Shown here piece by piece: positions 3,979-41,184 of a DNA stretch of 41,215 nt (positions are counted from its first letter, which is position 1; each line of letters opens with the position of its first letter). The notes beneath the pieces were generated by a model that ran no database searches, was not told the origin of the DNA, and worked only from the letters and a program-made list of their open reading frames with translations. This stretch comes from Candidatus Gottesmanbacteria bacterium CG_4_10_14_0_8_um_filter_37_24 (GTDB lineage: Bacteria; Patescibacteriota; Microgenomatia; 2-02-FULL-39-11), in contig PFMK01000045.1 of assembly GCA_002785215.1 (NCBI GenBank), forward strand, positions 1 to 41,215. The letters run 5' to 3'. Position numbers and translations under genes: made by a program.

Positions 3979-3985
3979 AAAGCTT

Positions 3986-5026: not shown

Positions 5027-5029
5027 CCT

Positions 5030-6187: not shown

Positions 6188-6195
6188 TATATTCT

Positions 6196-6498: not shown

Positions 6499-6502
6499 TA
6501 GC

Positions 6503-7450: not shown

Positions 7451-7465
7451 AAAAATAAATATCGT

Positions 7466-8203: not shown

Positions 8204-8204
8204 T

Positions 8205-9098: not shown

Positions 9099-9133
9099 AC
9101 AAAAGAGGATAATGAAAGTATTATGTAATATAT

Positions 9134-10114: not shown

Positions 10115-10118
10115 TCTT

Positions 10119-11936: not shown

Positions 11937-14684
11937 ATGATAGATAAAAAAAAGTTAAAAGAAAATATCAAAAGACTTATTGAGAAATACGAACTTTCTA
12001 AAAAATCTTTTTCAATAAGTAAATACAGCGAAGAAGAAACTAAAAAAGATTTTATATTACCTCTTTTTGCCTCTCTTGGTTGGGATGTGACTAATAAGAA
12101 TGAGGTTACAGCCGAAGAAAGCCAGTCATCCGGTCGAGTTGATTATGGTTTTTATTTAGAGGGAAGGATTAAGTTTTATCTTGAGGCTAAGTCGTTAAAA
12201 ACTGACTTACATCGAGAAGAATATGCTAATCAGGCAATCCGCTATTCCTGGAACAAAGGGGTGACTTGGGCAGTTTTAACTGATTTTGAGAGTATTAAAG
12301 TTTTTAATGTTCAGGATATATCGAAAAAATTGGGAGATAAGCTTTTTTTTGAAATTCCTTATTCACAGTATTTTGAAAGGTTAGATCAATTATGGTTACT
12401 GTCCAAAGATGCGTTTAAAGACAACCTCCTTGATATAGAGGCTGAAAAATACGGGAAAAAATTACAAAAAATATCCGTTGGCACTCTTTTATATAAAGAC
12501 TTGAATACATGTAGAGATATATTGACTCACGATTTATCCGCGTGGAATGATAATGTGTCAAAAGATTTACTTGATGAAGGCGTACAAAAAATTTTAGACA
12601 GACTAATTTTTATAAGGGTTGCTGAAGACAGAGAAGTTGAACCACCAACACTAATACCTTTAATCCGCGAATGGGAATCCAGAAAAGACAGAAATAAAAT
12701 TCCTCTTTATAAGTCAATGGTAGCCAAGTTTAGAGAGTTGAACGAAATATATAATTCTAACCTATTTTCCGAACATCCATTTGAAGAATGGGAAGATCAT
12801 AGCGATGCTACAAAAAGGGTTGTTGATATTCTTTATGGCAAAAAGGGATATTACGAATATGATTTTAAAGTTATTCCCGCTGATGTTTTGGGAAGCGTGT
12901 ATGAGAATTATTTAGGATACCGCCTTTCAAAATCAAGAAAGGGTATGACACTTGATATAGATGCTAGAAAAAGAAAAGAACAGGGTATTTATTATACTCC
13001 CGATTTTATTGTTGACTATATTGTTAAAAACTCATTAAAACCGGTTCTAGATAAATGTAAAAACATCAATGATCTTAAGAAAATCAAGGTTCTAGATCCT
13101 GCCTGTGGTTCCGGTTCATTTCTTATTAAGGCTCTCGAGGTAATTTATGATAAATATAGAGAATTTGGTAATCCTGGTGGTGTTTATACGAAACTAACAA
13201 TATTACTTGATAATATTTTCGGTGTTGACTTGGATTCGCAAGCTGTAGAAATCGCCAGACTTAACCTTCTTATAAATACTTTAGACAATAGGATGAGATT
13301 ACCACCGCTGGATAAAAATATTAAAAATGGTAACTCATTAATTTCTGGTTCAGATGAAGAATCGAAAAAATATTTCGGAAAAAACTATAGAGATAAAAAA
13401 CCATTTAACTGGCAGGAAGAATTTCCTGATGTATTTAAACAAGGAGGTTTTGGTGCAATTGTTGGTAATCCACCATATATTCAGTTATCGATGGATGCAA
13501 AACAAGACAATGATTTAAAAAAATATCTATTGGATAAATATCAATCATCAATGGGACGACTCAATACCTTTGGTTTTTTTATTAGGCTTGGAATAGATCT
13601 ACTGAAAGAGAATGGAATTCTTGGCTTTATTATTCCTAATACACTTCTAACACAGGACTATTATAGGCAATTACGGGAGACGATCTTGAATTACTGCATT
13701 ATAAGTAATATTGTTACTTTTCAAGATTTACCATTCAAGGATGCTGTAGTAGAAAACATTATTATTATCGTCCAAAAAACTAAATCCGAAAGAGAAAGAA
13801 ACAATAACAAAGTGATAATAAGTTATGTCAATGAGAAGTACGAGATATTAAGTAGAAAGAAGATAAATCAGAGAATATTTTATGAATCCAAGCAAAAAAC
13901 TTTTAATATTCGTGCAGGACAGAAGAACATGATTTTAAAACAAAAAATTGAGGAGGCAGCAGAACCTCTAGGAAATTTTCTTACAATTAATCAAGCAATT
14001 GCACTTAAACACGATCGGTCCAAGTATCTTTTTGATAAAAAATTAAATGCTAATTATAAACCGGTTTTAGACGGGCGAGATATTACTCGTTACTTTTTAT
14101 GTTGGTCTGGTAAATATTTGAATTATGATATCGATGCTATTCACAGCTGCAAGAGACAAGATATATTTTTATCGAGAGAGAAACTTTTTTTCAGAAGAGT
14201 CGGTGATAGATTGATTGCTACCTATGATGGGAAACAGTTTTATGCCTTAAACACTCTAGTGGTGATGAATCTGAAAGAAGGGATTGAATACAATCTGAAA
14301 TACTGTCTTGCTCTGTTTAATTCATCATTGCTAAATTATTACTTTTTAAATTTCTTAAAATCCACAAAAAAGGTGTTTTCTGAGATTCAAGCAAGACAAG
14401 TTGCTCAACTTCCCATTAAAATTATTAATTTTTCTAAGCCAGCAGATAAAGCAATACATGATCGTATTGTAGATCTTGCTCAATCTATGCTTAATTTAAA
14501 TAAGCAACTCGCAAATTTATCTGTTAATTCTAATGAATGGCTTGAGATTCAAACTGAAATCGGAAGAATAGATAAAAGATTAAATGCTGAAATTTATAAA
14601 CTCTACAGCCTCACGTCGGAGGAAATTGCGATTGTGGAGGGGGAAAGGAAAAGCAAAGCTTTTCTGCAAGTAAGTAAACTATGA
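11937..14684 (+). CDS. Type IIG restriction-modification enzyme (PD-(D/E)xK nuclease + gamma-class N6-adenine DNA methyltransferase + TaqI-like TRD in one chain)
   Basis: 915 aa. Nuclease motif GRVD69YGF...YLE83AK85. QGIYYTP motif. AdoMet motif I VLDPACGSGSFL (387-396). Catalytic NPPY (511-514). Eco57I-like segment LNTFGFFIRLGIDLLKENGILGFIIPNTLL. C-terminal LALFNSSLLNYYF is TRD-like. Confidence 0.8.
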   Translation: MIDKKKLKENIKRLIEKYELSKKSFSISKYSEEETKKDFILPLFASLGWDVTNKNEVTAEESQSSGRVDYGFYLEGRIKFYLEAKSLKTDLHREEYANQAIRYSWNKGVTWAVLTDFESIKVFNVQDISKKLGDKLFFEIPYSQYFERLDQLWLLSKDAFKDNLLDIEAEKYGKKLQKISVGTLLYKDLNTCRDILTHDLSAWNDNVSKDLLDEGVQKILDRLIFIRVAEDREVEPPTLIPLIREWESRKDRNKIPLYKSMVAKFRELNEIYNSNLFSEHPFEEWEDHSDATKRVVDILYGKKGYYEYDFKVIPADVLGSVYENYLGYRLSKSRKGMTLDIDARKRKEQGIYYTPDFIVDYIVKNSLKPVLDKCKNINDLKKIKVLDPACGSGSFLIKALEVIYDKYREFGNPGGVYTKLTILLDNIFGVDLDSQAVEIARLNLLINTLDNRMRLPPLDKNIKNGNSLISGSDEESKKYFGKNYRDKKPFNWQEEFPDVFKQGGFGAIVGNPPYIQLSMDAKQDNDLKKYLLDKYQSSMGRLNTFGFFIRLGIDLLKENGILGFIIPNTLLTQDYYRQLRETILNYCIISNIVTFQDLPFKDAVVENIIIIVQKTKSERERNNNKVIISYVNEKYEILSRKKINQRIFYESKQKTFNIRAGQKNMILKQKIEEAAEPLGNFLTINQAIALKHDRSKYLFDKKLNANYKPVLDGRDITRYFLCWSGKYLNYDIDAIHSCKRQDIFLSREKLFFRRVGDRLIATYDGKQFYALNTLVVMNLKEGIEYNLKYCLALFNSSLLNYYFLNFLKSTKKVFSEIQARQVAQLPIKIINFSKPADKAIHDRIVDLAQSMLNLNKQLANLSVNSNEWLEIQTEIGRIDKRLNAEIYKLYSLTSEEIAIVEGERKSKAFLQVSKL

Positions 14685-15610
14685 CTGAAAAAGAAATGGA
14701 GACAGAGATCAGGATGTCGCTGACTACCTTGACAAGAGGTATTCCTGAAGAGATAAGAAGCACGAAAAAGAGAATTGAAGCTTTGTGGAATAAAGAAACA
14801 AAGGTATTTAAAAAGTGTGCTCCTATCGCACTTGAATTCCTTCCCAAATTTGATCAGATTAAGAAAGATGAAAATAAGGCAGCTTTTGCGTCAGGACTTA
14901 GTTTATTCTTTTTGGTTTTGGGAGACGAATATTTCGACACACTGAAAAATTTTTCTTTAAAAGTCATTCAGCATCCTAACGGATCCGTCCGTGAGGCGAT
15001 CCGTAAAAGTGCGGATTGGTTATTTATATCTCTTTCTGCTCGCGCAGAGCCTTTTCTGTACCCAAAAACCAGGAGTTTAACTGAGAAACAAAAAGTTGTA
15101 CAAGCAGAAGCACAGAAGCAATACCTAAATCTTGCAAAAGAAATAGAATTGCTTATTGAATTATATGATAAGGGGGATACTAGAGTACAATACATTGACG
15201 AAATGAAACCATCGGTAAATAAAAGTTTGCAGCTTTTTTGGAGTAGATTAACGGAAAGTCCTGTATACCGCAGAATTTTAAAGCAGATGCGGTTCCAGCC
15301 ATATGAAATAGCCAAACAGAGAGCGGAAGTTGAAAAGGAGCTTGTAGTAATACTTGAAAAATCAAAGAGCGATTATACTTTGCAGGATATTCAGGAATGT
15401 ATTTTCCACGAAGATGGCAAGGAGGCTTTAACTGATATTATCTCTATGTTTGATACCGGCCAAAAGATGCCGAGTCTGGATAAAATTCTTGAAACTGTAA
15501 ATGATGCCTGGAATCTTTTCCCTCACAAAATCCTTGGTGGTTTATCGCCAGCAGAGAAATTTCTCGAATATAAAAAGACGCAGCAAAAGAATAAGAATAT
15601 GGTAAATTAA
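14681..15610 (+). CDS. hypothetical protein (alpha-helical, one HEAT-like segment), translationally coupled to the R-M gene
   Basis: 309 aa. Its ATG overlaps the R-M TGA (ATGA at 14681..14684). It contains HPNGSVREAIRKS (HEAT-like) and a C-terminal WNLFPHKILGGLSPAEKF motif. I recognise no family. Confidence 0.5.
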   Translation: MTEKEMETEIRMSLTTLTRGIPEEIRSTKKRIEALWNKETKVFKKCAPIALEFLPKFDQIKKDENKAAFASGLSLFFLVLGDEYFDTLKNFSLKVIQHPNGSVREAIRKSADWLFISLSARAEPFLYPKTRSLTEKQKVVQAEAQKQYLNLAKEIELLIELYDKGDTRVQYIDEMKPSVNKSLQLFWSRLTESPVYRRILKQMRFQPYEIAKQRAEVEKELVVILEKSKSDYTLQDIQECIFHEDGKEALTDIISMFDTGQKMPSLDKILETVNDAWNLFPHKILGGLSPAEKFLEYKKTQQKNKNMVN

Positions 15611-17272: not shown

Positions 17273-18691
17273 TTATTCTTGAGGATTGTTGACAACACCC
17301 ATAAAGAGGATTTCCTTGCTTTCACGATCTGTTATGGCAAAAAAGAAAGGCTTGTTTACTTCCATATAAAAAGTATCTTTTTCATTCGGCAAAGAGGTGG
17401 TAAATACCATCTCCACGCTGGTAACAGCTGTGGCCTCAGTACCTTTTTCATCCAGATTTATGTATGTTTTATGTTTTACCTTGCTGATTTTTATATCATT
17501 TTCACTTCTCATTTTGCTGAAGTCAGCATTGTCACTGAAAGCTACACCCATGCCTAAAGAAGACAAGGTATCTTTTAGTTCTTTGTCGTATTCGATTTTA
17601 AATTTTGGCAGGATAAGAGTACCCTCTTTTTCTTTAAAATTATTTACCCAGTTGTTCCAGTTATCAAGGCTAAGTTTATTTTCCAGTTGGGATATATTGT
17701 CTTTAGGTAGAAACACATACATGCCTAGATTTTTCTCTTTACCATATGGTAAATATATTCCTTGAAAATCGTCATTTTCCAAATAAAAATAATCTTTTCT
17801 CTCCTGCGTCATCGAAGGATGATTAATCTTTGTCAGATCAGGGAGAGTAAATGATTTTTCTTTCGTCAGCTTCGTGTCAAACTCATAAGTCCAAATTCCT
17901 TTGAAATAGATGGCATTTATGAGATACATGACAACATCTTTATCTATGGGTGAAGATACGATACTTGGTATTTTACTTCTGGTATTTGTGCTTACCCAGG
18001 AATTTATGATATTTGCCGCGTTTGGAGAAGAAAAATCAATTGCTTGTACTTGGGCTTCATAATACTTTTTATTTGTTTCTAAGAATTGAGGATTAAATGT
18101 AATTTCTTCTCTCATCCATATCGAGTTGGCAATTGACACTTCTATATCCGGATTGAGAGATGTCAAATGTTTGATTAATTCACTTCCGGACGTGTTTATT
18201 TTTTCGAGATCCATTTTTGAGAAATGTAGGGTTTGAGTCATGGCATCTTTGGTTTTGTTGTCTGCGCCGTTATATACCATAGACAGAGCTAAAGCGATAC
18301 TGGATGGAGAGATAAAGATATTTTGCGTATCATCTTTTGTATTTATGAGTTTATGAAATATGTCGAAGCCAAATTCATTATGTGCGAGGGAAAGTTCTAA
18401 AGGCGGATTATATATCACACTTGGTTCGATGTGTAATGTCGGAGTTGGTTGCATTCCTGTAGGATTGGCCAGATCGATAGATTCCTTTTTAAAGACCTGA
18501 TAATATTTTGAAGTAAAAATACCAATACCTATAATAATGATGAACATTAACAGGAAATATTTATGATGAAGAAATAGACTGTTTTTTTGACTGTCTACTT
18601 TTGCTGAAGGTTGACTTTGCTTAAATGAAAAAGTATTCAGGTCTTCAGCCTGTTCTTCTGGCCGGTTCTTAGGGTTTGTATCTTTCGTCAC
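17273..18691 (-). CDS. serpin-family protease inhibitor with an N-terminal membrane anchor
   Basis: 472 aa. TM helix YFLLMFIIIIGIGIFT near aa 45-60. Serpin motifs NIFISPSSIALALSMVYNGA, hinge EKGTEATAV, and C-terminal VNKPFFFAI...FMGVVNNP. Confidence 0.8.
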   Translation of the reverse strand: MTKDTNPKNRPEEQAEDLNTFSFKQSQPSAKVDSQKNSLFLHHKYFLLMFIIIIGIGIFTSKYYQVFKKESIDLANPTGMQPTPTLHIEPSVIYNPPLELSLAHNEFGFDIFHKLINTKDDTQNIFISPSSIALALSMVYNGADNKTKDAMTQTLHFSKMDLEKINTSGSELIKHLTSLNPDIEVSIANSIWMREEITFNPQFLETNKKYYEAQVQAIDFSSPNAANIINSWVSTNTRSKIPSIVSSPIDKDVVMYLINAIYFKGIWTYEFDTKLTKEKSFTLPDLTKINHPSMTQERKDYFYLENDDFQGIYLPYGKEKNLGMYVFLPKDNISQLENKLSLDNWNNWVNNFKEKEGTLILPKFKIEYDKELKDTLSSLGMGVAFSDNADFSKMRSENDIKISKVKHKTYINLDEKGTEATAVTSVEMVFTTSLPNEKDTFYMEVNKPFFFAITDRESKEILFMGVVNNPQE

Positions 18692-26255: not shown

Positions 26256-27527
26256 ATGAAACGGTATTTTTTTATTTTAGGAAGAAATCCTGATCTGTCT
26301 GTTCTTGAATTAATCTCCGTCTTTGATAATCGCACAATTCCTTATAAAATCTGCTTAGTATCTCGTGAAGCCGGTATATTTGAATTAGGAGAGAAAAATC
26401 AAATATCTGAGCTAATTAAAATATTCGGAGGTACAGTAAAAATTGGGGAAATCATGGACGAAATTGGATTTTCAGATGATTATTCTGAATTCGAGAAAAT
26501 ATTATCTGCTTCCAACTTAATAAAAAAATATTTACCATCGATAGAAGGTAAAGCGCATTTTGGTATAAGTATTTATGACGTGGGGGGAGATAATCTATAT
26601 TTATCAAAAATTACTTCTCAACTGAAAACTCTTAACATTCAGATTAAGGATAACTTGAGAGAAAAAGGAATTCATGCAGGTTTTGTAAAAATAAAAAATA
26701 GATTTCTTTCCAGCGTGTCTGTCGAAAAAAATCAATTGATAAACAAAGGTATGGAGTTGGTGATACTAGTCAGCAAAGAAAAATTATTATTTGGCAAATC
26801 ACTTCGCGTCCAGGAATTTTCCGATTTTAGTTTAAGAGATGTTGGCAGGCCTTATCGAGATAAAAAATCAGGAATTATACCTCCGAAACTGGCAAGGATG
26901 ATGATAAACATTGCTCAAGTAGATAGAGGTGATATCCTTCTTGATCCATTCTGCGGAAGCGGAACTTTGTTGCAGGAAGCAGTAGTATTAGGATATAAGC
27001 ACATAATAGGATCGGATATCAGCGCGAAAGCCATAGCAGACACAAAGAACAATCTTAATTGGTTGTTTGGTCAATTCCAGGAATTGAAAAGAGAAATATA
27101 TGATATGAATCTTATTCAGGCAGATGTAAGTAATTTATATTCATCCATTAAGGAGGCAAGAATCGGGGCAATAATTACAGAGCCTTATCTGGGACCACCG
27201 CTTTCTCATAAACCTGGCATAAATGAAGTAAAAGAGACAATATCAAACCTAAGCCGATTGTATTTAAAGGCATTTACTCAATTTTCCAAAATATTAGATC
27301 CCGACGGACGCGTCGTGATTATATTCCCATGTTTTGAAATCTCCGGTAATTTATTTTTTTTAGATATATTACAGGATATTCGTAATTTGGGTTTTGAAAC
27401 TCATCATTATAAGATCGATAACAGTTGGAGTAGTTACCTGAAATTTACCAAACGAGGATCAATAATTTATAGTAGCGAGATTAAGTTTTTCCAACGGGAA
27501 ATTCTTTCTTTTGTTAAGATAAAATGA
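26256..27527 (+). CDS. SAM-dependent RNA methyltransferase (UPF0020 / Trm11-RlmL-like)
   Basis: 423 aa with motif I LLDPFCGSGTLLQEA and motif IV-like ITEPYLGPP. Confidence 0.6.
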   Translation: MKRYFFILGRNPDLSVLELISVFDNRTIPYKICLVSREAGIFELGEKNQISELIKIFGGTVKIGEIMDEIGFSDDYSEFEKILSASNLIKKYLPSIEGKAHFGISIYDVGGDNLYLSKITSQLKTLNIQIKDNLREKGIHAGFVKIKNRFLSSVSVEKNQLINKGMELVILVSKEKLLFGKSLRVQEFSDFSLRDVGRPYRDKKSGIIPPKLARMMINIAQVDRGDILLDPFCGSGTLLQEAVVLGYKHIIGSDISAKAIADTKNNLNWLFGQFQELKREIYDMNLIQADVSNLYSSIKEARIGAIITEPYLGPPLSHKPGINEVKETISNLSRLYLKAFTQFSKILDPDGRVVIIFPCFEISGNLFFLDILQDIRNLGFETHHYKIDNSWSSYLKFTKRGSIIYSSEIKFFQREILSFVKIK

Positions 27528-30235: not shown

Positions 30236-31978
30236 ATGAAAAATGTTCGGGAAGTCACAAAAATCCTGATTCAGGAAGAAACAATCGTAACTATACTGAC
30301 CTTACTGTTCATTCTTTTAAGTATATATCCGACGCTTAGATTTTACTATAATACTCCTCCGGATTCCGTATATTCATTTCTTCATAATAGCGTAAGCGAT
30401 TATCCGTATTACATAAGTTTTATCAGACAGGGCATATTAGGCAGATTTACGACGATCGACCAGTTTACCAGTGAAAATCAGTCCGCAGGTTTCATTCATA
30501 TTTTTTATCTCTTTTTAGGCAGGATTGGATCGTTGTTCGGCTTTTCACCTTTTAATATATATTTTCTGGCAAGAATACTATTGGGAATTCTTTTCCTATT
30601 AACAAGTTATTATTTTATTGCCCATTTCTTAGATTCGAAAATTAAAAGGTTGCTTGCTTATGTATTATTTATCTCATCAGCCAGCTTCCCCCAAATATCT
30701 TTTCAGGAAAAGGGAATAAACATTTCATCGTATTTGTCCTGGTGGACAGAAGTTGATCCTATAAGAAGAGTGACATTTATTCCCCATTTCCTTTTAGGGC
30801 ATACGGGTATGGTACTGATGCTGCTGTTGTTATTAAAATTAACAAAATCAGGTAGCCGGAAGTTGCTACTTTTATGTATCTTAACTGGAAACATTATTGG
30901 AATATCCCACCCACCAAGCTTAGGAATGGTTTATTTTATATTTGGATTTTATTTGTTGACAATTTTCTTTATTATTTTGCTCAAAAAAGGTGATCTACTA
31001 AAAGTACTTAAGGAAATATCCTTATCAATAAAATTTTATTTATTATTTGTAATCTTAACAGTTCCATCACTTTATTATATTTACTACACCACCGGAAATA
31101 TATTCCCATGGACTCTTATGAAGGCGCAAGAATCACTTTTCTATTATATTTCGTTGAAAGAATACATGTTGTCAATCGGTCCGATATTGCCAATGGGTCT
31201 TATTGGTTTTTTTTCTGTCAAAATAATAATAAAAGATAAAACAAAATTATCTAATTTCAATATCCTTATTCTTTGGATAATCATAGACCTGATAATGATT
31301 CCATTTTCAAAAATTATTGCGTTTTCCAACTTGCCTATCAAAATTCCTACCTTTGCCAATATCAGATTTTTATCCATGGTGATTCAATTGCCGCTGTCAA
31401 TTCTCGCTGTTTTATTTTTGTTAAATATAAAAAAAACATTCGGTAGTAAATTTGTCTGTTTTTCTTTGTTCACCTATTTTATTACTACTTTGTCGGTTTA
31501 TCCTGTAAATATATCCAGCCAAATCAATGATTTTATTTATGCCCGAAAGTTTGTATACCCTTCAAAAAAACTGATAAACGTTATAAAATCTTTTGATAGT
31601 GTCACCGATGAAAGCAAAGCTGTTTTAGCCAGACAGGATACGAGTTTAATTATTTCTTTGTTTGCCAGAAATAAAGTTTATTTTGGCCAATCGGTATATA
31701 CATATGATAATGAAAATAAAAGTAATCAGGCGGATAAATTTTTTCAGGGGAACATGACAAGTTGCGAGGGAGAGAAATTTATCCGAGAAGGAAGGATAGA
31801 TTATGTCTTAACAGAAAATAAACTCGACACTCAGAAAACGGATAATTATCCTTTTTTACGGAAAGTGGAAATGTCTAATAAAGATGAATCAGGGAATGGT
31901 GAAAATAATATATATCTCTACGAATATGATAGTGAGGCAGTTGAAGGACAATGTAAGGGGGATATAGTTCTTCCATAA
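30236..31978 (+). CDS. large polytopic membrane protein (GT-C / ArnT-PMT-like glycosyltransferase candidate)
   Basis: 580 aa with more than 10 TM helices followed by a ~150-aa soluble C-terminal domain. The family call is inference from architecture only. Confidence 0.4.
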   Translation: MKNVREVTKILIQEETIVTILTLLFILLSIYPTLRFYYNTPPDSVYSFLHNSVSDYPYYISFIRQGILGRFTTIDQFTSENQSAGFIHIFYLFLGRIGSLFGFSPFNIYFLARILLGILFLLTSYYFIAHFLDSKIKRLLAYVLFISSASFPQISFQEKGINISSYLSWWTEVDPIRRVTFIPHFLLGHTGMVLMLLLLLKLTKSGSRKLLLLCILTGNIIGISHPPSLGMVYFIFGFYLLTIFFIILLKKGDLLKVLKEISLSIKFYLLFVILTVPSLYYIYYTTGNIFPWTLMKAQESLFYYISLKEYMLSIGPILPMGLIGFFSVKIIIKDKTKLSNFNILILWIIIDLIMIPFSKIIAFSNLPIKIPTFANIRFLSMVIQLPLSILAVLFLLNIKKTFGSKFVCFSLFTYFITTLSVYPVNISSQINDFIYARKFVYPSKKLINVIKSFDSVTDESKAVLARQDTSLIISLFARNKVYFGQSVYTYDNENKSNQADKFFQGNMTSCEGEKFIREGRIDYVLTENKLDTQKTDNYPFLRKVEMSNKDESGNGENNIYLYEYDSEAVEGQCKGDIVLP

Positions 31979-32004: not shown

Positions 32005-33038
32005 ATCTACAAAAGTAGAAATGTACTATCTGTATTTGAGCCTAAAATCTTACTAGAAGATGGATCATCTACAAAAGTAGAAATGTACTATCTGTATTTG
32101 AGCCACCTATTTATGACTCCTAAAACTAATCTACAAAAGTAGAAATGTACTATCTGTATTTGAGCAGGAGAGAGGAGAAAAGACCAATTAAATCTACAAA
32201 AGTAGAAATGTACTATCTGTATTTGAGATCTGATGAAAAAAGAGAATTAGCAAATCTACAAAAGTAGAAATGTACTATCTGTATTTGAGCTTACTGTTAA
32301 TCCTCTGGCGGCAAATCTACAAAAGTAGAAATGTACTATCTGTATTTGAGTTTTTAGTGCTATTGAAAAGTAAAAGATCTACAAAAGTAGAAATGTACTA
32401 TCTGTATTTGAGTTCACCAAGAGTCGGTGGCTCAAACTATCTACAAAAGTAGAAATGTACTATCTGTATTTGAGTGAAACGCTTGGAATAATAGGTCGTA
32501 TATCTACAAAAGTAGAAATGTACTATCTGTATTTGAGCATTCACACAAAGTGTAGACACTATTATCTACAAAAGTAGAAATGTACTATCTGTATTTGAGA
32601 TACATCCTCATATTCAAAATCATCAATCTACAAAAGTAGAAATGTACTATCTGTATTTGAGGAAATTGTAGTATGCTTTATTTATGTATCTACAAAAGTA
32701 GAAATGTACTATCTGTATTTGAGTCATGCGGCATCTATCGGATATTATCATCTACAAAAGTAGAAATGTACTATCTGTATTTGAGGAAGATGATATACTG
32801 AATAATAATCATATCTACAAAAGTAGAAATGTACTATCTGTATTTGAGTTTACATCTTCCTTTAAAACATTTCTTCTATCTACAAAAGTAGAAATGTACT
32901 ATCTGTATTTGAGATCATGAAGCTGTTATTAAAAGGTTATCTACAAAAGTAGAAATGTACTATCTGTATTTGAGTTAAATGGATATGATGTGGCTCTTTA
33001 TAATCTACAAAAGTAGAAATGTACTATCTGTATTTGAG
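32005..33038 (-). CRISPR. CRISPR array: 17 identical 36-nt repeats and 16 spacers of 25-29 nt (type V-A repeat)
   Basis: Plus-strand repeat is ATCTACAAAAGTAGAAATGTACTATCTGTATTTGAG. Starts are at 32005, 32067, 32129, 32192, 32254, 32315, 32377, 32439, 32502, 32564, 32626, 32688, 32750, 32813, 32878, 32939 and 33003. In transcribed (minus) orientation it reads CTCAAATACAGATAGTACATTTCTACTTTTGTAGAT, with a 3' UCUAC-UUUU-GUAGA-U hairpin. Confidence 0.97.
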
Positions 33039-33198
33039 AGCCTGTTGCTTGTCACAGCAATCTAAAGATGCAACCCGCAGCAAAAGCTGAATCGGGGACT
33101 TTAGGCGTAAAATAGCAAGAAACAGGCTCATAAAGACTTAAGTTTTCTCAAATATTAACAGTTTCACTTCTGCTTTTATAATCATTCATGTCAAAGTG
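33039..33198 (-). promoter_or_regulatory. CRISPR leader (AT-rich promoter-like part plus GC-rich long hairpin)
   Basis: 160 nt between the cas2 stop and the first transcribed repeat. An extended -10-like TGTTAATAT lies on the minus strand at 33152..33160. An imperfect palindrome spans 33039..33129. Confidence 0.55.
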
Positions 33199-33480
33199 CT
33201 ACCCGAAGTATACCACATTTTCGATATCATGATGAGCGCTACCGTAGCGGATGGTTTTTCCTCTACATCCTTCACACACGGGAAAAATTACTATGCTGTC
33301 AGTTTTTGTAAATAATTTTTTATACTTTGCTTCTATCTCCGTGAGAATATTTCTAAGTACCCTTGGGCTATTATGTACGGAAAAGACTGAATATTGCATC
33401 CTGCGGCCGTATTTCTTCAGGAATTTGGCAAATTTACTTCTGGTTTTATTATTAGTGAAATCGTAAGAAACTATCAACAT
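33199..33480 (-). CDS. cas2: CRISPR-associated endoribonuclease Cas2
   Basis: 93 aa, MLIVSYDFTNNKTRSKFAKFLKKYGRRMQYSVFSV (the ferredoxin-like Cas2 N-terminus). Positioned 4 nt after cas1. Confidence 0.9.
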   Translation of the reverse strand: MLIVSYDFTNNKTRSKFAKFLKKYGRRMQYSVFSVHNSPRVLRNILTEIEAKYKKLFTKTDSIVIFPVCEGCRGKTIRYGSAHHDIENVVYFG

Positions 33481-33484
33481 ATAA

Positions 33485-34438
33485 TTATATTTGAAATTCA
33501 GGGAAAGGATATTTCTTTTTATTCATGATATACCGATAAAAGGCAAGTATATATAGATATATTTCTTCTTTGTTCTGGTCGATTGCCTCCAAGAAAACAG
33601 AGCTATATTTTTTACTGGTAACAAATCCCTTCTTAAATTCAAATCTTCCGTTTCGAAAAAGAAAATCTTTTTCTTTTATCTGTCCCAAATGATAGCTTTT
33701 CAGAAGCTGCCGATCGATAAGCGGCCTTAATGGTTCCATGATATCGCAAGCCAGAGATTTTCTTTGAAAGAAAAGCTGATGATAATACCCTTTATATGTA
33801 TCAAATCCGAATAACCGCAATAGTGAATCACATAAGTTAAAAAGATAAGTATATCCTATATCCAGGAGGAGATTAATGATATCTTCCCTTGTCTGAGGAG
33901 CTCGACGAAGCCAGTTTAGTTTTTGAAACATAGCTCCAAAATATGTTTTACTCACGATTCCCTCAACACCCAGCAACTGTTGTTTATCTTTTATTTTAGC
34001 GAGCATATTTAACGCATTGTCAAGTATCTGATGATCATATGGTTTCTTATATTTTTCCAGCAGTAATTGCTGGTTTCTGATTTTATTTTTTATGATAGCT
34101 GACGAAATGTATAAATCATCTTTCGTAGTATACTGCTTCTGCCTAAGAAGATAATTTCCCTCAGACTCAGCCATGACGGCCGCAAGGGTACGCAGATTAT
34201 GATTCAGGAAAAATACGGAGATACCATATGAAGTAAGTTTTTTCAGTAAAGCAGTTGTGATGCTCATCTCCCCGACAATAAATACTGCCAATACTGTATG
34301 GCAGGACATCTGATCTATGGCCTCTCCGTCACGTACGAAACGTATGTTGTCATTCGTCAACTGAAGAAGATTGTCTGATCTATATTCTGCCTGCACATAG
34401 AGAATATGTTTTTCCCTGAAATCAGGTAGTGTTAACAT
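33485..34438 (-). CDS. cas1: CRISPR-associated endonuclease Cas1
   Basis: 317 aa, typical Cas1 length. C-terminal alpha-domain segment DIMEPLRPLIDR. Lies between cas4 and cas2 and overlaps cas4 by 17 nt. Confidence 0.9.
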   Translation of the reverse strand: MLTLPDFREKHILYVQAEYRSDNLLQLTNDNIRFVRDGEAIDQMSCHTVLAVFIVGEMSITTALLKKLTSYGISVFFLNHNLRTLAAVMAESEGNYLLRQKQYTTKDDLYISSAIIKNKIRNQQLLLEKYKKPYDHQILDNALNMLAKIKDKQQLLGVEGIVSKTYFGAMFQKLNWLRRAPQTREDIINLLLDIGYTYLFNLCDSLLRLFGFDTYKGYYHQLFFQRKSLACDIMEPLRPLIDRQLLKSYHLGQIKEKDFLFRNGRFEFKKGFVTSKKYSSVFLEAIDQNKEEIYLYILAFYRYIMNKKKYPFPEFQI

Positions 34439-34988
34439 AGGTATTTGAATTACATAACTGGTGATAAATACAATTTGTGCATTTAGCCGGATTTGGATGC
34501 AATTTTACGGAGTCAATCATAAAATTGTGTATACTAGTGATAATATCCTCGAACTTTTTTTGCTGATTTTGGTCTGGTAATTCGACCTCGTAGCGTTTGT
34601 TATCCTTCAATGAGTGTAAAAACATTTTCCTAACCGGTAAATTTGCTTCAAAAAGACAATACATCTGTGCGTATAATTGATACCGGTGACCGTCAAATAT
34701 TGTCCTGATGTGGTATTTCCGCTCAATAAGAAATTCATTTTCCAGGTTATAGATATCAATTTTGCCTTTTATACCAAGCCGGCTGCTATAGACCGATAGT
34801 CCCTGGAGAATGCGGCTGGAAGTAGTATAAATAGCAGAATCGATAGTTTCGTGGGCGATTTTTCCTCTTGTTTGGGCTTTGTCATGATAGACAGTGGTGT
34901 CAAAGGAACTATAAATACTATGGTAATAGAGGGAAAGAGGGCAGAAAATGAAATCGTTTATCGCAGATATAGGTATGGCTGAGTCCAT
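34422..34988 (-). CDS. cas4: CRISPR-associated exonuclease Cas4 (RecB-like, Fe-S cluster)
   Basis: 188 aa. N-terminal FIFCPLSLYY Cys plus C-terminal CTNCIYHQLC gives the 4-Cys pattern. A D...E.K-type core is present (IDIYNLENEFLIERKY). Confidence 0.85.
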   Translation of the reverse strand: MDSAIPISAINDFIFCPLSLYYHSIYSSFDTTVYHDKAQTRGKIAHETIDSAIYTTSSRILQGLSVYSSRLGIKGKIDIYNLENEFLIERKYHIRTIFDGHRYQLYAQMYCLFEANLPVRKMFLHSLKDNKRYEVELPDQNQQKKFEDIITSIHNFMIDSVKLHPNPAKCTNCIYHQLCNSNTYVNTT

Positions 34989-35016
34989 GCCCTATAGTGT
35001 ATCATGCAAGAGCAAA

Positions 35017-38000
35017 TTATGCTTTTTTGGAGGAAACAAGGGCGAGGTATTTATCATATTCCTGTTGGGTGACGGTTAATCCTCCATACTCAATTTCTTC
35101 AAGCCTCTTCGCTTTATTAATTTTCTGTAAAATCAGGATTCCTTTTCTGGCAATATTATAAGCGCCGTTTGCATCTCCATTGAACTCAAATGGTTTTTTA
35201 CCCTTATATCTTTTAGTAAGAGTTATTAAATTGTTCTCAGAATGAAAATAGCAATGAGGGCAGGAAATAAAATCTCTGTATTTTTCATTATTCTCATTTT
35301 GATTTATTTCAATGGTTGTATTTCTTAATTGGAGAATTAAAGAAATTATATATATAAAAGGCTTATAAAAATTTTCATTTTCAAAATTTCTAGTTTTAAT
35401 TAACTGTGAAATATTTGAAAAATTTTGGAAATTTATTCCATTTTCATGAAATAATTTTTTCAAAGAATCATTAGGGTATTTAAGTTCTACTTTCCCACCA
35501 CGATTATTTTGATCTCTTATATACTTGAATCTTTCTACATTTGAATAAAAGGTAAAGTCATCTGGTAATTTAGTGTTACTATATAGTTTCACCTTCGAAT
35601 CATCCTCTTTCTCTTTTTCTGATTTGATAAAATCACTTCTTTTGTAGCGGAAACAGAATCTGTCTTTGTCTGGATCATAAACGATATTAAATTTATTGAT
35701 AAGATCGATATTTTTTTCAATTTTTTCTACAAAAGTGGAGATGTTTTTGCGAAAACCGCAAGCAGGGCAAATAGCAGAGGTATAACTTGCAGGTACATAG
35801 AATATGATTCCGCACTGTTTGCCGATATCCTGGAAATTAATTACTGGTGGGGTGAGCTGGTATGCCTGCAAAAAGTGGCCTGTTTCTTCCTCTTTTGCAT
35901 CTTTAAATACCATGTAATTTAATTTTTTTGCAAGAGCTAATTCGAGATTTTGGTATATCTGTTTTTCAATAGCGAAGCGGCCACGTTTAAAACCTATATT
36001 GAGATCCTCAAACACAACAATCGCTTCATATTTTCTTATTAATTTGCAGATTTGATGTACAACTTGGGAAATATACCCCTTTTTCATCTCTTTTATGGAG
36101 GATATTTCCTGCCAGGATTTTCTTTGCCAATCTCTCTCTTTTTGAATCTGATCCAGTTTTTTCTGATAATCTGTTGGTTCTCTGTCTTCCCGTTCCTGGA
36201 CTTCATTGAAAGAATCAGTTTCAAGGATATTACCTTGATGATCAATCACAGAATAATATGCTAAATTTTTTTCTCCTCTATCAATTCCAATGATCTTAAC
36301 TTTAGAGTTATTTCTTATTGTGTTACAGATTTTTGTATTTATTTTCCAATCATTTTCAGTAAAATTAATTGAAACAGGACAATGGAAATAGATTTTGTTT
36401 TGAGTAAAACGTTTCTTATGAAATATATTATTATTTTTCTTTATTATTTTTATTTGATTTTTAACTGTAATAATAGGATCTTTAGTCAAGTTTTTAGTTA
36501 GTTTCCGATAAAATAGTTCCGCTCCACCATTCAGTTTTAATATAGTTTTTTTAAAGTTTGTATTACTAAATAGTGCCTTCCAGTAAATTGAGTGTAAATT
36601 TCTTCTACCATTCTTATCTTTAAAGTTATAACCCTTAGGAGCGATATTCTCATCAAGTTCAAAGTCTTTGTTATATATCTGAAATAGATAAAGTCTTCCA
36701 CTTTCTATTAGTTCATATAGCTTGCTAAAATTTATATTCTCCCAGGTGACTTTATAGCATGACCGTGTAGCATCTTTGTAAAAATCGGAGATATTATCGT
36801 ATTCACTAGTCTCCTGCCATTTAAAACTAAAGCCTTTGTAAGATTCATGCTGACTTATGCCTAATTTAAAGTAGTCTATTATCTTTTTCAGAGATTCATG
36901 ATAGTTTTGACTGCTTTTATTTGAAGTCTTGAACAAGCCCTTATCGTAAATATTTAACACTGAGTCTATTGGTAAGTTATATTTTTTTACGGCTGGGGCG
37001 AAGTTTGATCCACTTGAGCGAATAAACAGTTTGGGAAAGTTCTTAAAATCTGGTTTTTGATAATTATAGACTAATCTTAGGCTTATATTATTATTTCTGA
37101 TATCTAAATAAAGTTGTTCTATTTCATCCTTAGTGAATTTTGTTCCGTTAATAATTCCTAGATAATATTTTTCATTCTTTTCAAATATTAAAGCACCATA
37201 ACTATCATAGTTTTTTGACCAGCCGCTTAGTAATGAACTGCACTCAAAATTCAACTTAATCTTTTCGGAGTTATATGGTTTTTTAGTCAAATAATTCCTA
37301 AAAACATTAAAATATTTCCAAGTATTGATATTTTCATAATATTCTTTGAACTTTTCATAGAAACCACCAATAGCGTCCTCATCCAGTGCCTCAGGATTCC
37401 AGACTCTTTCTTTTCCCTTTTCCAAAGAAAAATATTTCATCATCAGATAGATATCAAAAACAGATTGTGTATAATCAAGAAACTTTTCTTTTTGGATGCT
37501 TCCTTTTTTTCCAGACTTAAGCCTCCCTTTCTTATTGGGAAGGTATTTTTTATCTTCTGTTATCATTTTTTCTATTTCCTTTGTCTCATTTAGATAGATA
37601 TCTGTCGCTTTTTCAAACTCTTTTTCCCAGATTTTAAGAAATATTTGATAGAAGTCAGATCCCTCTTCTAGAATATCCCGATATTCTTTCCTAAATAGAT
37701 CATTAACCTCTACAATATTTTGAGTCTTTTGTAACGCAGCTTTTAAGGATGTTACTGAAATAAAATCTGGTATATTTTTTTTATCTTTTGGGATTAACAG
37801 GTTTCTTATCGTATTCCAATTGGAAAACCATTTATTTGAGATAGTATTAATAAACCGTTTTGCTACATAAATTTGGCTGATATTATATTCATCTGATTTT
37901 ACTTTTTGGCTAGAAATAAATTTCTTGAAAATCGACTTTGCCTTTGGAATGCATATTTTGTTTTCGTTAATAAATTTTTGCATAGTTGGAAAAACATCTT

Positions 38001-38985
38001 CATCCTGAAAAATTTCGATGAAACTATCCTGTTCGATTTCTTGTTTACTAGGTTGGCTTAAAATTTGTTTGAAAAGTCTTTTGAAAAAAGGAAGGTCTTT
38101 TTTGCTAACCTCAGGATTGTTTTGACGCAGTTGGTTAACATTCGAATTTATCAGTGCAATGGTATTATTGTAACCATCAATCTGTTTTTGACTGAAACAG
38201 TTGTTGAAATAGAATAAAACAAAAATTCTAAGTTCATTTTTCGCAAAAACTGATTTATGTTTTTTCGAATATTTTGACTCAAATATTTTCTTATTCTCCA
38301 GGAATATGCTTAAGTTATCATTGATGATTCTTGTAGGAATAGCGGTAGAAGTGCCATCGTCTTTATAAAAATTTATTCTTGTTTCATGAAATTTTTTAAA
38401 ATAACAGCCGAATTTATTAAATGGATCAAAAATGCTTTTTCCATTAATCTGGGCTTCTGGATATTTATATTTGAGAAAATCAAAAACTTCTACTTTGAAA
38501 AACAGTTCAATCCCTTTTGTTCCCTCTTTGATTTTTTTCAGTTTCTTTTCTAATTCTTTTTTTTGCTGTTTTTCATTTTTGTTTTTTAATGTTTGCTCAA
38601 TATTTTTTAAATATCGATTTTTCCACTGATCAGCTTCAGTGTTAAAGCTTTTTAAGAGAATAGTTCTGAGTCTTTTGGCAATTTTTTCCAGATCTATTCT
38701 ACTTGCTCTGGATGGATTTAGTTTATGAGAAAAGTATTTTTGTTCATAACCTTCTAGAAGATTTTCTGGTAAGTTTGTATGCGAAAAAGCATCTTTGATA
38801 AATTCTTTGTGGAGTCTGTCGAAATACTTTTTGACATCTTTATAGTTTTCAGCGATTTTTTCATCTTTTTCAAAAACATGGTTTTTCTCCAAGAGTTCTT
38901 TGGTTCGACCTACTGGGATAAGTTCAAAACGGAGTGTTTTTTGCAGTTCATAGAGGTGAGTAAAATCCTTAAAAATACCAGTCAT
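35017..38985 (-). CDS. cas12a: Cas12a (Cpf1), type V-A single effector nuclease
   Basis: 1322 aa. N-terminal LYELQKTLRFELIPVGRT. RuvC-I IIGIDRGEKNLAYYSV (D902), RuvC-II AIVVFEDLNIGFKRGR (E993), RuvC-III FNGDANGAYNIARKG (D1271), and Nuc-lid LILQLRN (R1221). There is no HNH domain. The matching repeat hairpin lies in the adjacent array. Confidence 0.95.
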   Translation of the reverse strand: MTGIFKDFTHLYELQKTLRFELIPVGRTKELLEKNHVFEKDEKIAENYKDVKKYFDRLHKEFIKDAFSHTNLPENLLEGYEQKYFSHKLNPSRASRIDLEKIAKRLRTILLKSFNTEADQWKNRYLKNIEQTLKNKNEKQQKKELEKKLKKIKEGTKGIELFFKVEVFDFLKYKYPEAQINGKSIFDPFNKFGCYFKKFHETRINFYKDDGTSTAIPTRIINDNLSIFLENKKIFESKYSKKHKSVFAKNELRIFVLFYFNNCFSQKQIDGYNNTIALINSNVNQLRQNNPEVSKKDLPFFKRLFKQILSQPSKQEIEQDSFIEIFQDEDVFPTMQKFINENKICIPKAKSIFKKFISSQKVKSDEYNISQIYVAKRFINTISNKWFSNWNTIRNLLIPKDKKNIPDFISVTSLKAALQKTQNIVEVNDLFRKEYRDILEEGSDFYQIFLKIWEKEFEKATDIYLNETKEIEKMITEDKKYLPNKKGRLKSGKKGSIQKEKFLDYTQSVFDIYLMMKYFSLEKGKERVWNPEALDEDAIGGFYEKFKEYYENINTWKYFNVFRNYLTKKPYNSEKIKLNFECSSLLSGWSKNYDSYGALIFEKNEKYYLGIINGTKFTKDEIEQLYLDIRNNNISLRLVYNYQKPDFKNFPKLFIRSSGSNFAPAVKKYNLPIDSVLNIYDKGLFKTSNKSSQNYHESLKKIIDYFKLGISQHESYKGFSFKWQETSEYDNISDFYKDATRSCYKVTWENINFSKLYELIESGRLYLFQIYNKDFELDENIAPKGYNFKDKNGRRNLHSIYWKALFSNTNFKKTILKLNGGAELFYRKLTKNLTKDPIITVKNQIKIIKKNNNIFHKKRFTQNKIYFHCPVSINFTENDWKINTKICNTIRNNSKVKIIGIDRGEKNLAYYSVIDHQGNILETDSFNEVQEREDREPTDYQKKLDQIQKERDWQRKSWQEISSIKEMKKGYISQVVHQICKLIRKYEAIVVFEDLNIGFKRGRFAIEKQIYQNLELALAKKLNYMVFKDAKEEETGHFLQAYQLTPPVINFQDIGKQCGIIFYVPASYTSAICPACGFRKNISTFVEKIEKNIDLINKFNIVYDPDKDRFCFRYKRSDFIKSEKEKEDDSKVKLYSNTKLPDDFTFYSNVERFKYIRDQNNRGGKVELKYPNDSLKKLFHENGINFQNFSNISQLIKTRNFENENFYKPFIYIISLILQLRNTTIEINQNENNEKYRDFISCPHCYFHSENNLITLTKRYKGKKPFEFNGDANGAYNIARKGILILQKINKAKRLEEIEYGGLTVTQQEYDKYLALVSSKKA

Positions 38986-39013
38986 AAGTCGATGAGCTTA
39001 TATTATTTCCCAG

Positions 39014-39022
39014 ATTATATCA
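39014..39022 (-). promoter_or_regulatory. candidate extended -10 element (TGATATAAT) for cas12a
   Basis: The reverse complement of 39014..39022 is TGATATAAT. It sits in the 54-nt valS-cas12a gap, about 29 nt upstream of the cas12a ATG. No good -35 lies at 17 nt. Confidence 0.3.
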
Positions 39023-39039
39023 TATACAGAATTGTTGAG

Positions 39040-41184
39040 TTATGCCTCAGGCCAGAGGGTTATTATAAGTGGCATCTTGTTCTCAGGATCTATTTGGGTT
39101 TTAATTTCCTCTGTTATAAACGGCATAAAGGGATGCAGAAGAGTAAGACTTTGTATGAATACATAAATAAGTACAGATAATGTTTCCTTATCATTATTGT
39201 GCAGTCTTTCCTTTGAAGATTCTATGTATTTATCCGCTAATTCATGCCAAATGAATTCATAAAGAAGGTCTGCGGCTCTTGAAAAATTGTACTTTTCAAA
39301 ATCAGATGTTACTGATTTGATCAATTCGTCTGTTTTGTCTAATATATTTTTATTGTCCGGATGCAGTTTACTTCTGCTGGATGACTGGCTAAAAGTAATG
39401 GATTCCGCGTTATTTTTTCCGATAAATTCAGAATTCATTTTTATAAATCTCGCCATATTCCACAGTTTGTTTGTAAAATTCCTCATCGCCCGTATTTTAT
39501 CTTCAGACATAGGCAAATCGTTGCCTAATGCACTTCCAAAAATAAGAGCCATTCTTAAAGCGTCTGCGCTGTAAGTATCTGCCATAATCAGGGGATTTAT
39601 TACGTTCCCTTTGGACTTGCTCATTTTTTGACCCTTCGAATCGCGGACAAGACCATGCAAAACCACTCTTCTGAATGGGACTTTGTTTGTAACGTACAAT
39701 CCCAGCATGATCATCCGGCACACCCACCAGGGTAATATGTCATAGCCTGTTTCCATGACGCTCGTGGGGTAGAAATACTCATAATTCTTCATACTGTTTA
39801 CCTGAAGAGTAGCGAAAGGCCATTGTCCAGAAGAAAACCATGTATCAAAAGTGTCAGGATCCTGTATAAGATTTTTACCTTTGCATTTAGGACACGAGGA
39901 AGGTGTGTTCCCTTCGGTGACGATCCAATCACTTTCTATTCCGCAGTCTATACACTGCCACGCAGGAATTCTTATTCCCCAGACGATCTGACGGCTGATG
40001 TTCCAATCATGGAAATTTGATAGCCATTGGATGGCAGTTTTTTCAAATCGTTTGGGTGTAAAAACGATACTCTTTTCCCTGATGGCTTTAATTGCCGGAT
40101 CAGTTAATGGTTTTACCCTGACATACCATTGAGGAAGAGGAAGGGGTTCAATTACGTTTCCGCATTTATAACATGTGCCTACGTTGTGGGTATATTTTTC
40201 ATTAATGTGATCGATTAATCCTTTCGCCTTAAGATCCTCTGCAACTTTTATTCTTGCTGCCATGACTTTCATGCCATGATAAGGACCTGTCAGATCAGTA
40301 AGTCTTCCGTTGTAGCCGATCACTTGTTTCATGGGTAATTTATGCCGGAGTCCCATTTCGAAATCTGTCACATCATGGGCCGGTGTAACTTTTACCACTC
40401 CTGTTCCGAATTTCGGGTCTACAGCTTCATCTGCAATAACAGATAATTTAAAATCTCCCAATAGTCCCTTAACTTCAAATTCTTTTCCAACATACTTTTT
40501 ATATCTTTTATCAGAAGGGTGTACTGCAACTGCGGTATCGCCGAATTTAGTCTCAGGCCTTGTGGTAGCCAGAATGAAGGGGCCGTATTTTAAATAATAC
40601 AAAGGATCTATTCTTTCCACGTATTTTACTTCCAAATCGGAAAATCCAGTTCCGCATTTCGTGCAGTAGTTTACCAGTCTTTTGCTTCTGTATAAAAGAC
40701 CGTCATTATGAAGTTTTTTGAAAGTTTTATAGACGATTTTTATAACCTTTTCATCCAGCGTAAAAACCTGTTTGGTCCAATCAAGGGAAAATCCCAGACG
40801 TCTTAGTTGGTTTTCCATGTTACCGCGGTTATTCTGGACAAAATCCCAGATCATTTTATAGAGTTCTTCCCGATTGTAATCAAAACGGCTTTTACCCTCT
40901 TTGGTAAGATGTTTTTCAAAAACATACTGTGTTTCAAAACCGGCATGATCTGTTCCAGGAAGCCAAAGAGTAGAGGAGCCAAGCATTCTGTGATAGCGGA
41001 TCATGATGTCTTCAATCACATACATGGCATGACCCAGATGCAGATCCGCATTAGCATTGGGAGGGGGGAGTATTATGGTAAACGGTTTTTTGGAAGGGTT
41101 AATTTTAGGAGTAAAATATCCTTTTTTTTCCCAAAAACTATACCATTTTTTCTCGACTTCTTGATGTTTGTATACTTTGTCCAT
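39040..41184 (-). CDS. valS: valine--tRNA ligase (short form without the C-terminal coiled coil)
   Basis: 714 aa with PPPNANADLHLGHA (HIGH), the editing-domain motifs TTRPETKFGDTAVAVHP and GTGVVKVTPAHD, WNISRQIVWGIRIPAW, and KMSKSKGN. Confidence 0.85.
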   Translation of the reverse strand: MDKVYKHQEVEKKWYSFWEKKGYFTPKINPSKKPFTIILPPPNANADLHLGHAMYVIEDIMIRYHRMLGSSTLWLPGTDHAGFETQYVFEKHLTKEGKSRFDYNREELYKMIWDFVQNNRGNMENQLRRLGFSLDWTKQVFTLDEKVIKIVYKTFKKLHNDGLLYRSKRLVNYCTKCGTGFSDLEVKYVERIDPLYYLKYGPFILATTRPETKFGDTAVAVHPSDKRYKKYVGKEFEVKGLLGDFKLSVIADEAVDPKFGTGVVKVTPAHDVTDFEMGLRHKLPMKQVIGYNGRLTDLTGPYHGMKVMAARIKVAEDLKAKGLIDHINEKYTHNVGTCYKCGNVIEPLPLPQWYVRVKPLTDPAIKAIREKSIVFTPKRFEKTAIQWLSNFHDWNISRQIVWGIRIPAWQCIDCGIESDWIVTEGNTPSSCPKCKGKNLIQDPDTFDTWFSSGQWPFATLQVNSMKNYEYFYPTSVMETGYDILPWWVCRMIMLGLYVTNKVPFRRVVLHGLVRDSKGQKMSKSKGNVINPLIMADTYSADALRMALIFGSALGNDLPMSEDKIRAMRNFTNKLWNMARFIKMNSEFIGKNNAESITFSQSSSRSKLHPDNKNILDKTDELIKSVTSDFEKYNFSRAADLLYEFIWHELADKYIESSKERLHNNDKETLSVLIYVFIQSLTLLHPFMPFITEEIKTQIDPENKMPLIITLWPEA

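Follow-up and report, generated by a model that had tools for sequence, protein, structure and literature searches.

A stretch of DNA from Candidatus Gottesmanbacteria bacterium CG_4_10_14_0_8_um_filter_37_24 (contig PFMK01000045.1, positions 1 to 41,215 of the forward strand; 41,215 nucleotides in all, referred to here as the window) carries a CRISPR-Cas locus with a single large effector at 32005-38985. With high confidence, the locus is read as a class 2 type V-A system on the chromosome of Candidatus Gottesmanbacteria (Microgenomates, candidate phyla radiation, CPR), complete in its components and probably functional. An earlier note, made from the letters of the window, had proposed the same class, and that assignment is borne out by the effector profile, the RuvC triad, the predicted fold, the repeat handle, the lack of an anti-repeat and the presence of cas4, cas1 and cas2.

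The whole locus lies on the minus strand, and the gene order, coordinates and counts described in the earlier note were all reproduced from the open reading frames (ORFs). The gene for the single-RuvC effector, cas12a (cpf1; 1322 amino acids, 35017-38985), is followed by a type V cas4 (188 amino acids, 34422-34988), cas1 (317 amino acids, 33485-34438) and cas2 (93 amino acids, 33199-33480), each of which was identified from its ORF and by profile matches. Between cas12a and cas4 there is a gap of 28 nt; cas4 and cas1 overlap by 17 nt, and 4 nt separate cas1 from cas2. A leader of 160 nt (33039-33198), containing blocks conserved in related loci, comes directly after cas2, and beyond it lies a CRISPR array of 17 repeats and 16 spacers (32005-33038), for which the cas2 side would be the start of transcription.

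In searches with profile hidden Markov models, all four proteins matched the families proposed for them (Cas12a, Cas4, Cas1 and Cas2). The 1322-amino-acid protein matched the NCBIfam equivalog model TIGR04330 (cas_Cpf1) with 752.7 bits (E 8e-226, cutoff 300), as expected of a Cas12a. It also matched the Pfam families RuvC_1, REC1 and Cpf1_PI-like, and the Cas12a models of PADLOC scored up to 1157 bits across residues 4-1314. A Pfam search of the effector found no HNH domain, in keeping with the earlier description, and the KTLRFELIPVG motif was located at residues 16-26. When the protein was compared with all PDB sequences using phmmer, the 26 matches were to Cas12a only (E 1e-158 to 1e-111) and comprised ReChb and the Fn, Lb2, Mb, Lb, Am and As enzymes. 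An AlphaFold2 model of residues 540-1322, built with 43 sequences, had a mean predicted local distance difference test score (pLDDT) of 81.8 and a predicted template modelling score (pTM) of 0.78; in a Foldseek search of the PDB with this model, the top 50 matches were all Cas12a (E 1e-52 to 1e-41, TMq 0.6-0.7).

The adaptation proteins were identified in the same way. Cas4 matched the type V model TIGR04328 with 195.3 bits (cutoff 70) as well as Pfam Cas_Cas4, and Cas2 matched TIGR01573 with 55.9 bits (cutoff 24.5) and Pfam CRISPR_Cas2 with 63.8 bits. Cas1 matched the generic model TIGR00287 with 142 bits (cutoff 71.7) and Pfam Cas_Cas1 with 178 bits, while its score of 289.8 bits against the type V model TIGR04329 fell marginally under the cutoff of 300.

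An alignment of 120 homologs was used to count the conservation of individual positions in the effector. The columns of the residues named in the earlier note are essentially invariant: the RuvC-I aspartate D902 (IGIDRGE, 36280-36282, minus strand) is Asp in 119 of the 120, the RuvC-II glutamate E993 (VVFEDLN, 36007-36009, minus) is Glu in all 120, the RuvC-III aspartate D1271 (NGDANGAYNIARKG, 35173-35175, minus) is Asp in all 120, and the Nuc-domain arginine R1221 (LQLRN, 35323-35325, minus) is Arg in 119. Directly after E993 comes the bridge helix, GFKRGRFAIEKQIYQNLELALAKKLN, which is canonical as read from the sequence and closely resembles that of FnCas12a. The Nuc region (35251-35769, minus) lies between the two halves of a CxxC...CxxC zinc ribbon (C1073, C1076, C1242 and C1245). 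All four cysteines are present in 44 of the 120 homologs, including this clade, and in the remainder the columns hold mostly D, T, S and E/A.

The intact zinc ribbon bears on a rival identity for the effector, namely a Cas12a2-like enzyme that would bring about RNA-triggered abortive infection instead of targeting DNA. Cas12a2, described in papers of 2023, reportedly works with a repeat handle of this same kind and contains a zinc ribbon; the handle found here is compatible with it. However, the same ribbon occurs in 44 of the 120 ordinary Cas12a homologs, and both the bridge-helix segment, nearly identical to that of FnCas12a, and the conserved Nuc arginine are those of canonical Cas12a. The match to the Cas12a equivalog model is full-length and far above its cutoff. 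No chain named Cas12a2 is found among the 26 PDB sequence matches or the top 50 Foldseek matches, in which all names are Cas12a, Cpf1, ReChb or ‘nuclease’ (6iv6, which is MbCas12a according to Foldseek). On these grounds a Cas12a2 identity was rejected as extremely improbable.

The characterised systems closest to this Cas12a are those of FnCas12a, LbCas12a and AsCas12a (PDB 5NG6, 5XUS and 5B43) and the reconstructed ancestor ReChb (8QWD). The domain order (WED-REC1-REC2-WED-PI-WED-RuvC-BH-RuvC-Nuc-RuvC, where BH is the bridge helix and PI the domain that interacts with the protospacer-adjacent motif, PAM), the D/E/D RuvC triad, the Nuc arginine and the lack of HNH are common to all of them, as are the repeat 3' handle AUUUCUACU-N4-GUAGAU and the cas4-cas1-cas2-array layout. 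The effector described here differs from them in that its identity to them is only about 27-36% over the C-terminal 783 amino acids, its WED-III loop lacks the H/K/K motif, and its zinc-ribbon cysteines are intact; in the repeat, base -19 is C and not A. A tyrosine also stands at the position that we equate with AsCas12a K548.

Among CPR bacteria, Cas12a systems are on record for Roizmanbacteria, Parcubacteria and Dojkabacteria (Zetsche 2015, as cited in PMC6509639). These share the host superphylum of the present locus, and the leader of one of them, Roizmanbacteria locus L012, is homologous to the leader found here. The ‘group 1’ Cas12a of Roizmanbacteria carries an E-to-N substitution in RuvC (PMC6509639), whereas all RuvC residues are kept in the window. 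The effectors closest in sequence, with 53-64% identity, form a metagenomic clade (P0002-P0008; for example JGI 3300003432, locus L082) that resembles this locus in having the zinc ribbon, a WED-III loop that is short or non-canonical, and genes in the order cas4-cas1-cas2. Its Cas1 (48-50%), Cas4 (46%) and repeat, however, are less similar to those of the window than are those of loci with distant effectors, and its genomic neighbourhood differs; the neighbourhood of the closest effector homolog, P0005, is also a different one.

The 36-nt repeat, CTCAAATACAGATAGTACATTTCTACTTTTGTAGAT, is present in 17 exact copies at 32005-33038, and the 3' end of every copy reads UCUAC-UUUU-GUAGA-U, as had been claimed. 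By chance the motif of the handle, TCTACNNNNGTAGAT, would be expected 0.02 times, and 17 occurrences were counted; a handle of the form ATTTCTACT-N-GTAGAT is common to about 50 Cas12a loci. The 16 spacers are all unique and 25-29 nt long, with no 12-mer common to any two. A minimum free energy fold of the full repeat gave an alternative hairpin (-5.3 kcal/mol, z = -1.1). This hairpin was dropped from consideration, as it is not significant and is disrupted by the repeat variant of L012.

The proposal that the system works without a trans-activating CRISPR RNA (tracrRNA) agrees with a scan for anti-repeats, in which no match of at least 12 nt to the repeat or its complement was found outside the array in the 41-kb window; two 11-nt matches lie outside the array, and both are isolated. 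No Rfam family matched the window at the gathering threshold, and ARAGORN found no tRNA genes in it. When the window was searched for self-targets with up to six mismatches, none was found but one six-mismatch chance match.

A course of action for the system can be proposed from these components. At the leader-proximal repeat, Cas4, Cas1 and Cas2 would add new spacers about 26 nt in length, and transcription of the array would start from the leader and follow the minus strand. Each CRISPR RNA (crRNA) would keep a 19-20-nt repeat-derived 5' handle (…CAUUUCUACUUUUGUAGAU) that would fold into the Cas12a pseudoknot/stem-loop, and no tracrRNA would be used. The Cas12a-crRNA complex would then find a PAM-flanked protospacer, of which the single RuvC site (D902/E993/D1271) would cut both strands with the assistance of Nuc R1221. 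A T-rich 5' PAM and a staggered, PAM-distal cut would be predicted by extension from the characterised orthologs. As for expression of the effector, the stop codon of the flanking valyl-tRNA synthetase (ValRS) gene, valS (39040-41184, minus), is only 54 nt from the start of cas12a (38986-39039); because of this short distance, cas12a may be co-transcribed with valS or be served by a promoter inside the 3' end of valS.

The leader was aligned with those of four related loci (L084, L012, L008 and L009), and two blocks were found to be conserved in all of them; the leader is thus kept across loci with this type of Cas1. The first reads AAAACC..AGTCTTTATGAGCC.GTTT and the second, which abuts repeat 1, reads GTTGCATCTTTAG...TCTGACAA.AA..GGCT; about 45 conserved nucleotides of the leader adjoin the first repeat. 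These blocks are candidates for a leader-anchoring or integration signal. A scan of the leader for sigma-70 promoters gave results no better than those from shuffled sequences.

Comparison of whole loci revealed that the effector and the remaining components do not have the same nearest relatives. Relative to the proteins and repeat of the window, the Patescibacteria locus L009 is 35% identical in Cas12a but 72% in Cas1 and 77% in Cas2, and its repeat matches at 32 of 36 positions. The Roizmanbacteria locus L012 gives 34% for Cas12a, 62% for Cas1 and 68% for Cas2, with a repeat that matches at 35 of 36 positions, and the Pacebacteria locus L008 gives 35%, 62% and 72%, with a repeat more diverged in its 5' half. 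In L082, which belongs to the part of the metagenomic clade designated P0002-P0006, the order is inverted: Cas12a is 61% identical, Cas1 only 48% and Cas2 59%, and the repeat differs (...CAGATTTCTACT). Thus the loci that come nearest in leader, repeat, Cas1 and Cas2 have effectors far removed from this one, whereas the locus with the nearest effector has more distant adaptation genes and a more distant repeat. As such a reversal of rank is beyond the reach of differing evolutionary rates alone, the comparison suggests that effector modules and adaptation/array modules have been exchanged within subtype V-A.

Many samples yielded the same Cas12a protein, which is present on over 24 contigs, and the arrays that accompany it provide a view of spacer turnover. 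One locus (L091, ENA ERZ27293379) has identical cas genes and an identical leader together with three new spacers at the leader end, which indicates that spacers are acquired in situ and supports the impression, given in the earlier note, that the locus looks active. In the array of L091 (10448-10646), one repeat ends in G, not T. L084 comes from a more distant lineage (Cas1 74%, Cas2 70% identical) and combines an identical 36-nt repeat with four unrelated spacers. Taken together, the L091 and L084 arrays show that acquisition takes place in these populations and that the repeat is strongly constrained. Two further loci with identical Cas12a have short arrays: of the spacers, L085 retains numbers 15-16 alone, whereas the array of L089 consists of one repeat and no spacers. 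These may reflect repeat collapse in assembly or real deletions.

Several observations weigh against a functional system. The same 16 spacers occur in the same order in seven assemblies from different samples, including GCA_002796225.1 (PCWS01000138.1), so turnover is slow. When the whole array was compared by BLAST with records of phages (50,697) and plasmids (72,556), only chance matches came up (E of at least 0.3). The L091 and L084 arrays likewise gave only chance matches to phages and plasmids (E of at least 0.2), and eight spacers sought in IMG/VR as exact strings of 20-22 nt had 0 matches; as there was no protospacer in the phage, plasmid or IMG/VR collections, no PAM was derived. In the effector, the residue at a second PAM contact presumably differs, since Y593, which we equate with AsCas12a K548, is a tyrosine here, as it is in 20 of the 120 homologs. 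The last of these points concerns the WED-III loop (residues 829-860; 36406-36501, minus), which is the site of the pre-crRNA RNase triad in characterised Cas12a and is non-canonical here. I839/T840 stand in the column of Fn H843 and H856 in that of K869, while the segment with K852 is deleted, so that the alignments, which are unreliable in this loop, did not recover the canonical triad (Fn H843/K852/K869).

The unchanged array and the lack of protospacers would also be expected if the locus were a remnant, decaying or silent, that had ceased to confer immunity, and the short arrays of L085 and L089, if they are deletions, would fit the same picture. A remnant would be difficult to reconcile with four intact cas ORFs joined by tight junctions, intact catalytic residues, 17 repeats that are all identical, and the new leader-end spacers of L091. 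The short arrays, moreover, come from k141 short-read assemblies, in which we infer that repeat collapse is common. Decay is accordingly considered improbable.

The loop evidence affects one step of the proposed mechanism, the maturation of the crRNA. In FnCas12a, pre-crRNA is processed by the WED residues H843, acting as the acid, K852, and K869, acting as the base (PMC11127173). The corresponding triad of LbCas12a is H759/K768/K785, and H759, the equivalent of Fn H843, has been called a conserved histidine (PMC6711708). The loop of the present effector (residues 824-870) reads LFYRKLTKNLTKDPIITVKNQIKIIKKNNNIFHKKRFTQNKIYFHCP, and within it residues 833-854 form one of only two stretches of the AlphaFold2 model with pLDDT <50. 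Such a departure is not confined to the window: of the 120 closest homologs only a minority carry the canonical HPA...NKN...KDKRF motif, which most metagenomic homologs lack, and in the nearest clade, P0002-P0006, the loop is without any histidine; KRF/KRY and the downstream FH.P strand are conserved.

The form of the loop is associated with a feature of the repeat. Base -19, with which the mature handle of FnCas12a begins, is A in all 41 array-bearing loci whose effector has a histidine early in the loop. It is not A in five of the six loci without such a loop, among them the present one with C (Fisher p = 4e-6, phylogeny not corrected for), and across loci of this kind it varies among A, G, C and U. 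Six further loci, assigned manually, agree with this: base -19 is C and G in the two whose loop has no histidine, A in the single canonical one, and A, A and U in the three with only a late histidine.

By analogy with the characterised orthologs, the likeliest route would still be that the WED domain processes the pre-crRNA itself, because the handle is otherwise canonical and there is no other RNase in the locus, although the catalytic arrangement may differ. Self-processing is the weakest step of the mechanism, since the canonical H/K/K triad is not conserved. A system of type V-A with non-canonical crRNA maturation is a possibility that we entertain only tentatively. In such a system the work would be done by a different set of residues in the WED domain (H856/K857/K858 together with the Lys-rich segment 842-850 are an example) and in a relaxed cleavage-site context, or else the effector would leave pre-crRNA unprocessed and host RNases would trim the transcript. 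The altered H843, K852 and K869 columns, the histidine-less loops of the nearest clade, the very low model confidence of residues 833-854 and the behaviour of base -19 all speak for this possibility, as do published accounts of the loop histidine as conserved (PMC6711708) and as a general acid (PMC11127173). Nevertheless, the rest of the handle, from -18 to -1 and including the UCUAC/GUAGA stem, is canonical, KRF/KRY and the FH.P strand that follows are kept, the locus has no other RNase gene, and the alignments that displace the triad are unreliable in the loop. The short-loop form is, in addition, widespread in metagenomic Cas12a that keep arrays, and short-loop enzymes are for that reason presumably functional.

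The PI domain (residues 646-744; 36754-37050, minus; Pfam PF22222) contains K652 (37030-37032), which we equate with K607 of AsCas12a, its PAM-reading lysine; on this mapping that lysine would be conserved. The K652 column holds Lys in 70 and Arg in 34 of the 120 homologs. Comparison of the window with locus L081 identified 23 single-nucleotide polymorphisms (SNPs) in 8.8 kb. Of the 14 SNPs in valS, 4 change an amino acid, as opposed to 7 of the 8 in cas12a (Fisher p = 0.024 for the contrast), and there were none in cas4, cas1, cas2, the leader or the shared part of the array. Across 14 full-length population variants of Cas12a, 13 residues vary, and 4 of these, including K652R, fall in the 99-residue PI domain (binomial p = 0.013). 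The pattern is only suggestive of selection on PAM recognition, because the numbers are small.

The host assignment is supported by the flanking ValRS, which is 62-67% identical to the Candidatus Gottesmanbacteria proteins listed among its matches. ValRS proteins of 685-805 amino acids without a C-terminal coiled coil are the norm in the Gottesmanbacteria group; a truncation of valS by insertion of the locus, which had been considered, was ruled out for this reason. The 90% cluster to which the effector belongs, labelled ‘Type V CRISPR-associated protein Cpf1’ in UniRef, includes OIO15737.1, annotated as ‘hypothetical protein AUJ73_00115 [Candidatus Gottesmanbacteria bacterium CG1_02_37_22]’, with a lineage in the Patescibacteria group, Microgenomates group. 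The exact Cas12a sequence is already deposited in NCBI, JGI, ENA and UniRef. Among 5.8 billion proteins, the closest effector outside its own 90% cluster is 64% identical, and no close relative was found in the GTDB species-representative genomes (best match 48%). Cas12a in CPR bacteria is already documented (PMC6509639). The literature search returned no paper in which Cas12a or Cpf1 is mentioned together with Gottesmanbacteria, nor any that contains the sequence of this handle. The ortholog is deposited, yet apparently unstudied.

Elsewhere in the window, a second defence gene encodes a type IIG restriction-modification enzyme of 915 amino acids (11937-14684, plus; Eco57I/MmeI-like, PADLOC 376 bits). 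Its end is overlapped by a 309-amino-acid ORF with no family match (14681-15610, plus), and a DNA methyltransferase-like ORF of 423 amino acids lies at 26256-27527. A mevalonate-pathway cluster (2827-10826, plus) encodes HMG-CoA reductase, an HMG-CoA synthase-like protein, thiolase, two GHMP kinases and diphosphomevalonate decarboxylase, along with a carotenoid-biosynthesis-family protein and undecaprenyl-diphosphate synthase; it seems a considerable biosynthetic investment for a small CPR-type genome. Two small pilin ORFs of the type IV secretion system (T4SS) type (PF18895; 93-560 and 896-1207, minus) adjoin a gene for an extracytoplasmic function (ECF) sigma factor (1351-1905). The T4SS-type pilins, the mevalonate operon and the type IIG enzyme fit a CPR genome. 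A serpin of 472 amino acids with an N-terminal extension of about 100 residues (17273-18691, minus; Pfam Serpin 377 bits) was unexpected in a CPR bacterium.

The array is met from the opposite side by a hydrophobic ORF of 580 amino acids (30236-31978, plus) that converges on it and ends 26 nt from the last repeat. This ORF has no Pfam, NCBIfam or PADLOC match and, judged by eye from its translation, looks like a multi-pass membrane protein. It is regarded as a chromosomal neighbour, not as part of the system, because it occupies the same position in all sister assemblies.

Type V-A is a textbook system, and the present locus adds nothing conceptually as a system. Its value is as material: it provides an intact ortholog that is at most 64% identical to any outside its own 90% cluster and about 30-36% identical to the characterised enzymes, with a natural population of variants, among them a K/R polymorphism at the residue that we equate with the PAM-reading lysine. 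The mismatch between its effector and its adaptation genes and repeat illustrates, neatly and on a small scale, an apparent exchange of modules within a single subtype. Its non-canonical RNase loop makes it a convenient test case for crRNA maturation in the many Cas12a enzymes that lack the histidine. It is conceivable, though on present evidence rather unlikely, that the effector belongs to a large, uncharacterised part of the Cas12a family, drawn mostly from CPR and other uncultivated lineages, in which the RNase pocket has been remodelled or lost and base -19 is no longer constrained to A. If this were true, crRNA maturation in these systems would proceed by a different catalytic arrangement or in a different cleavage register, or would depend on host RNases, and inhibitors such as AcrVA4, which bind to the canonical processing site, would fail to act on such enzymes.

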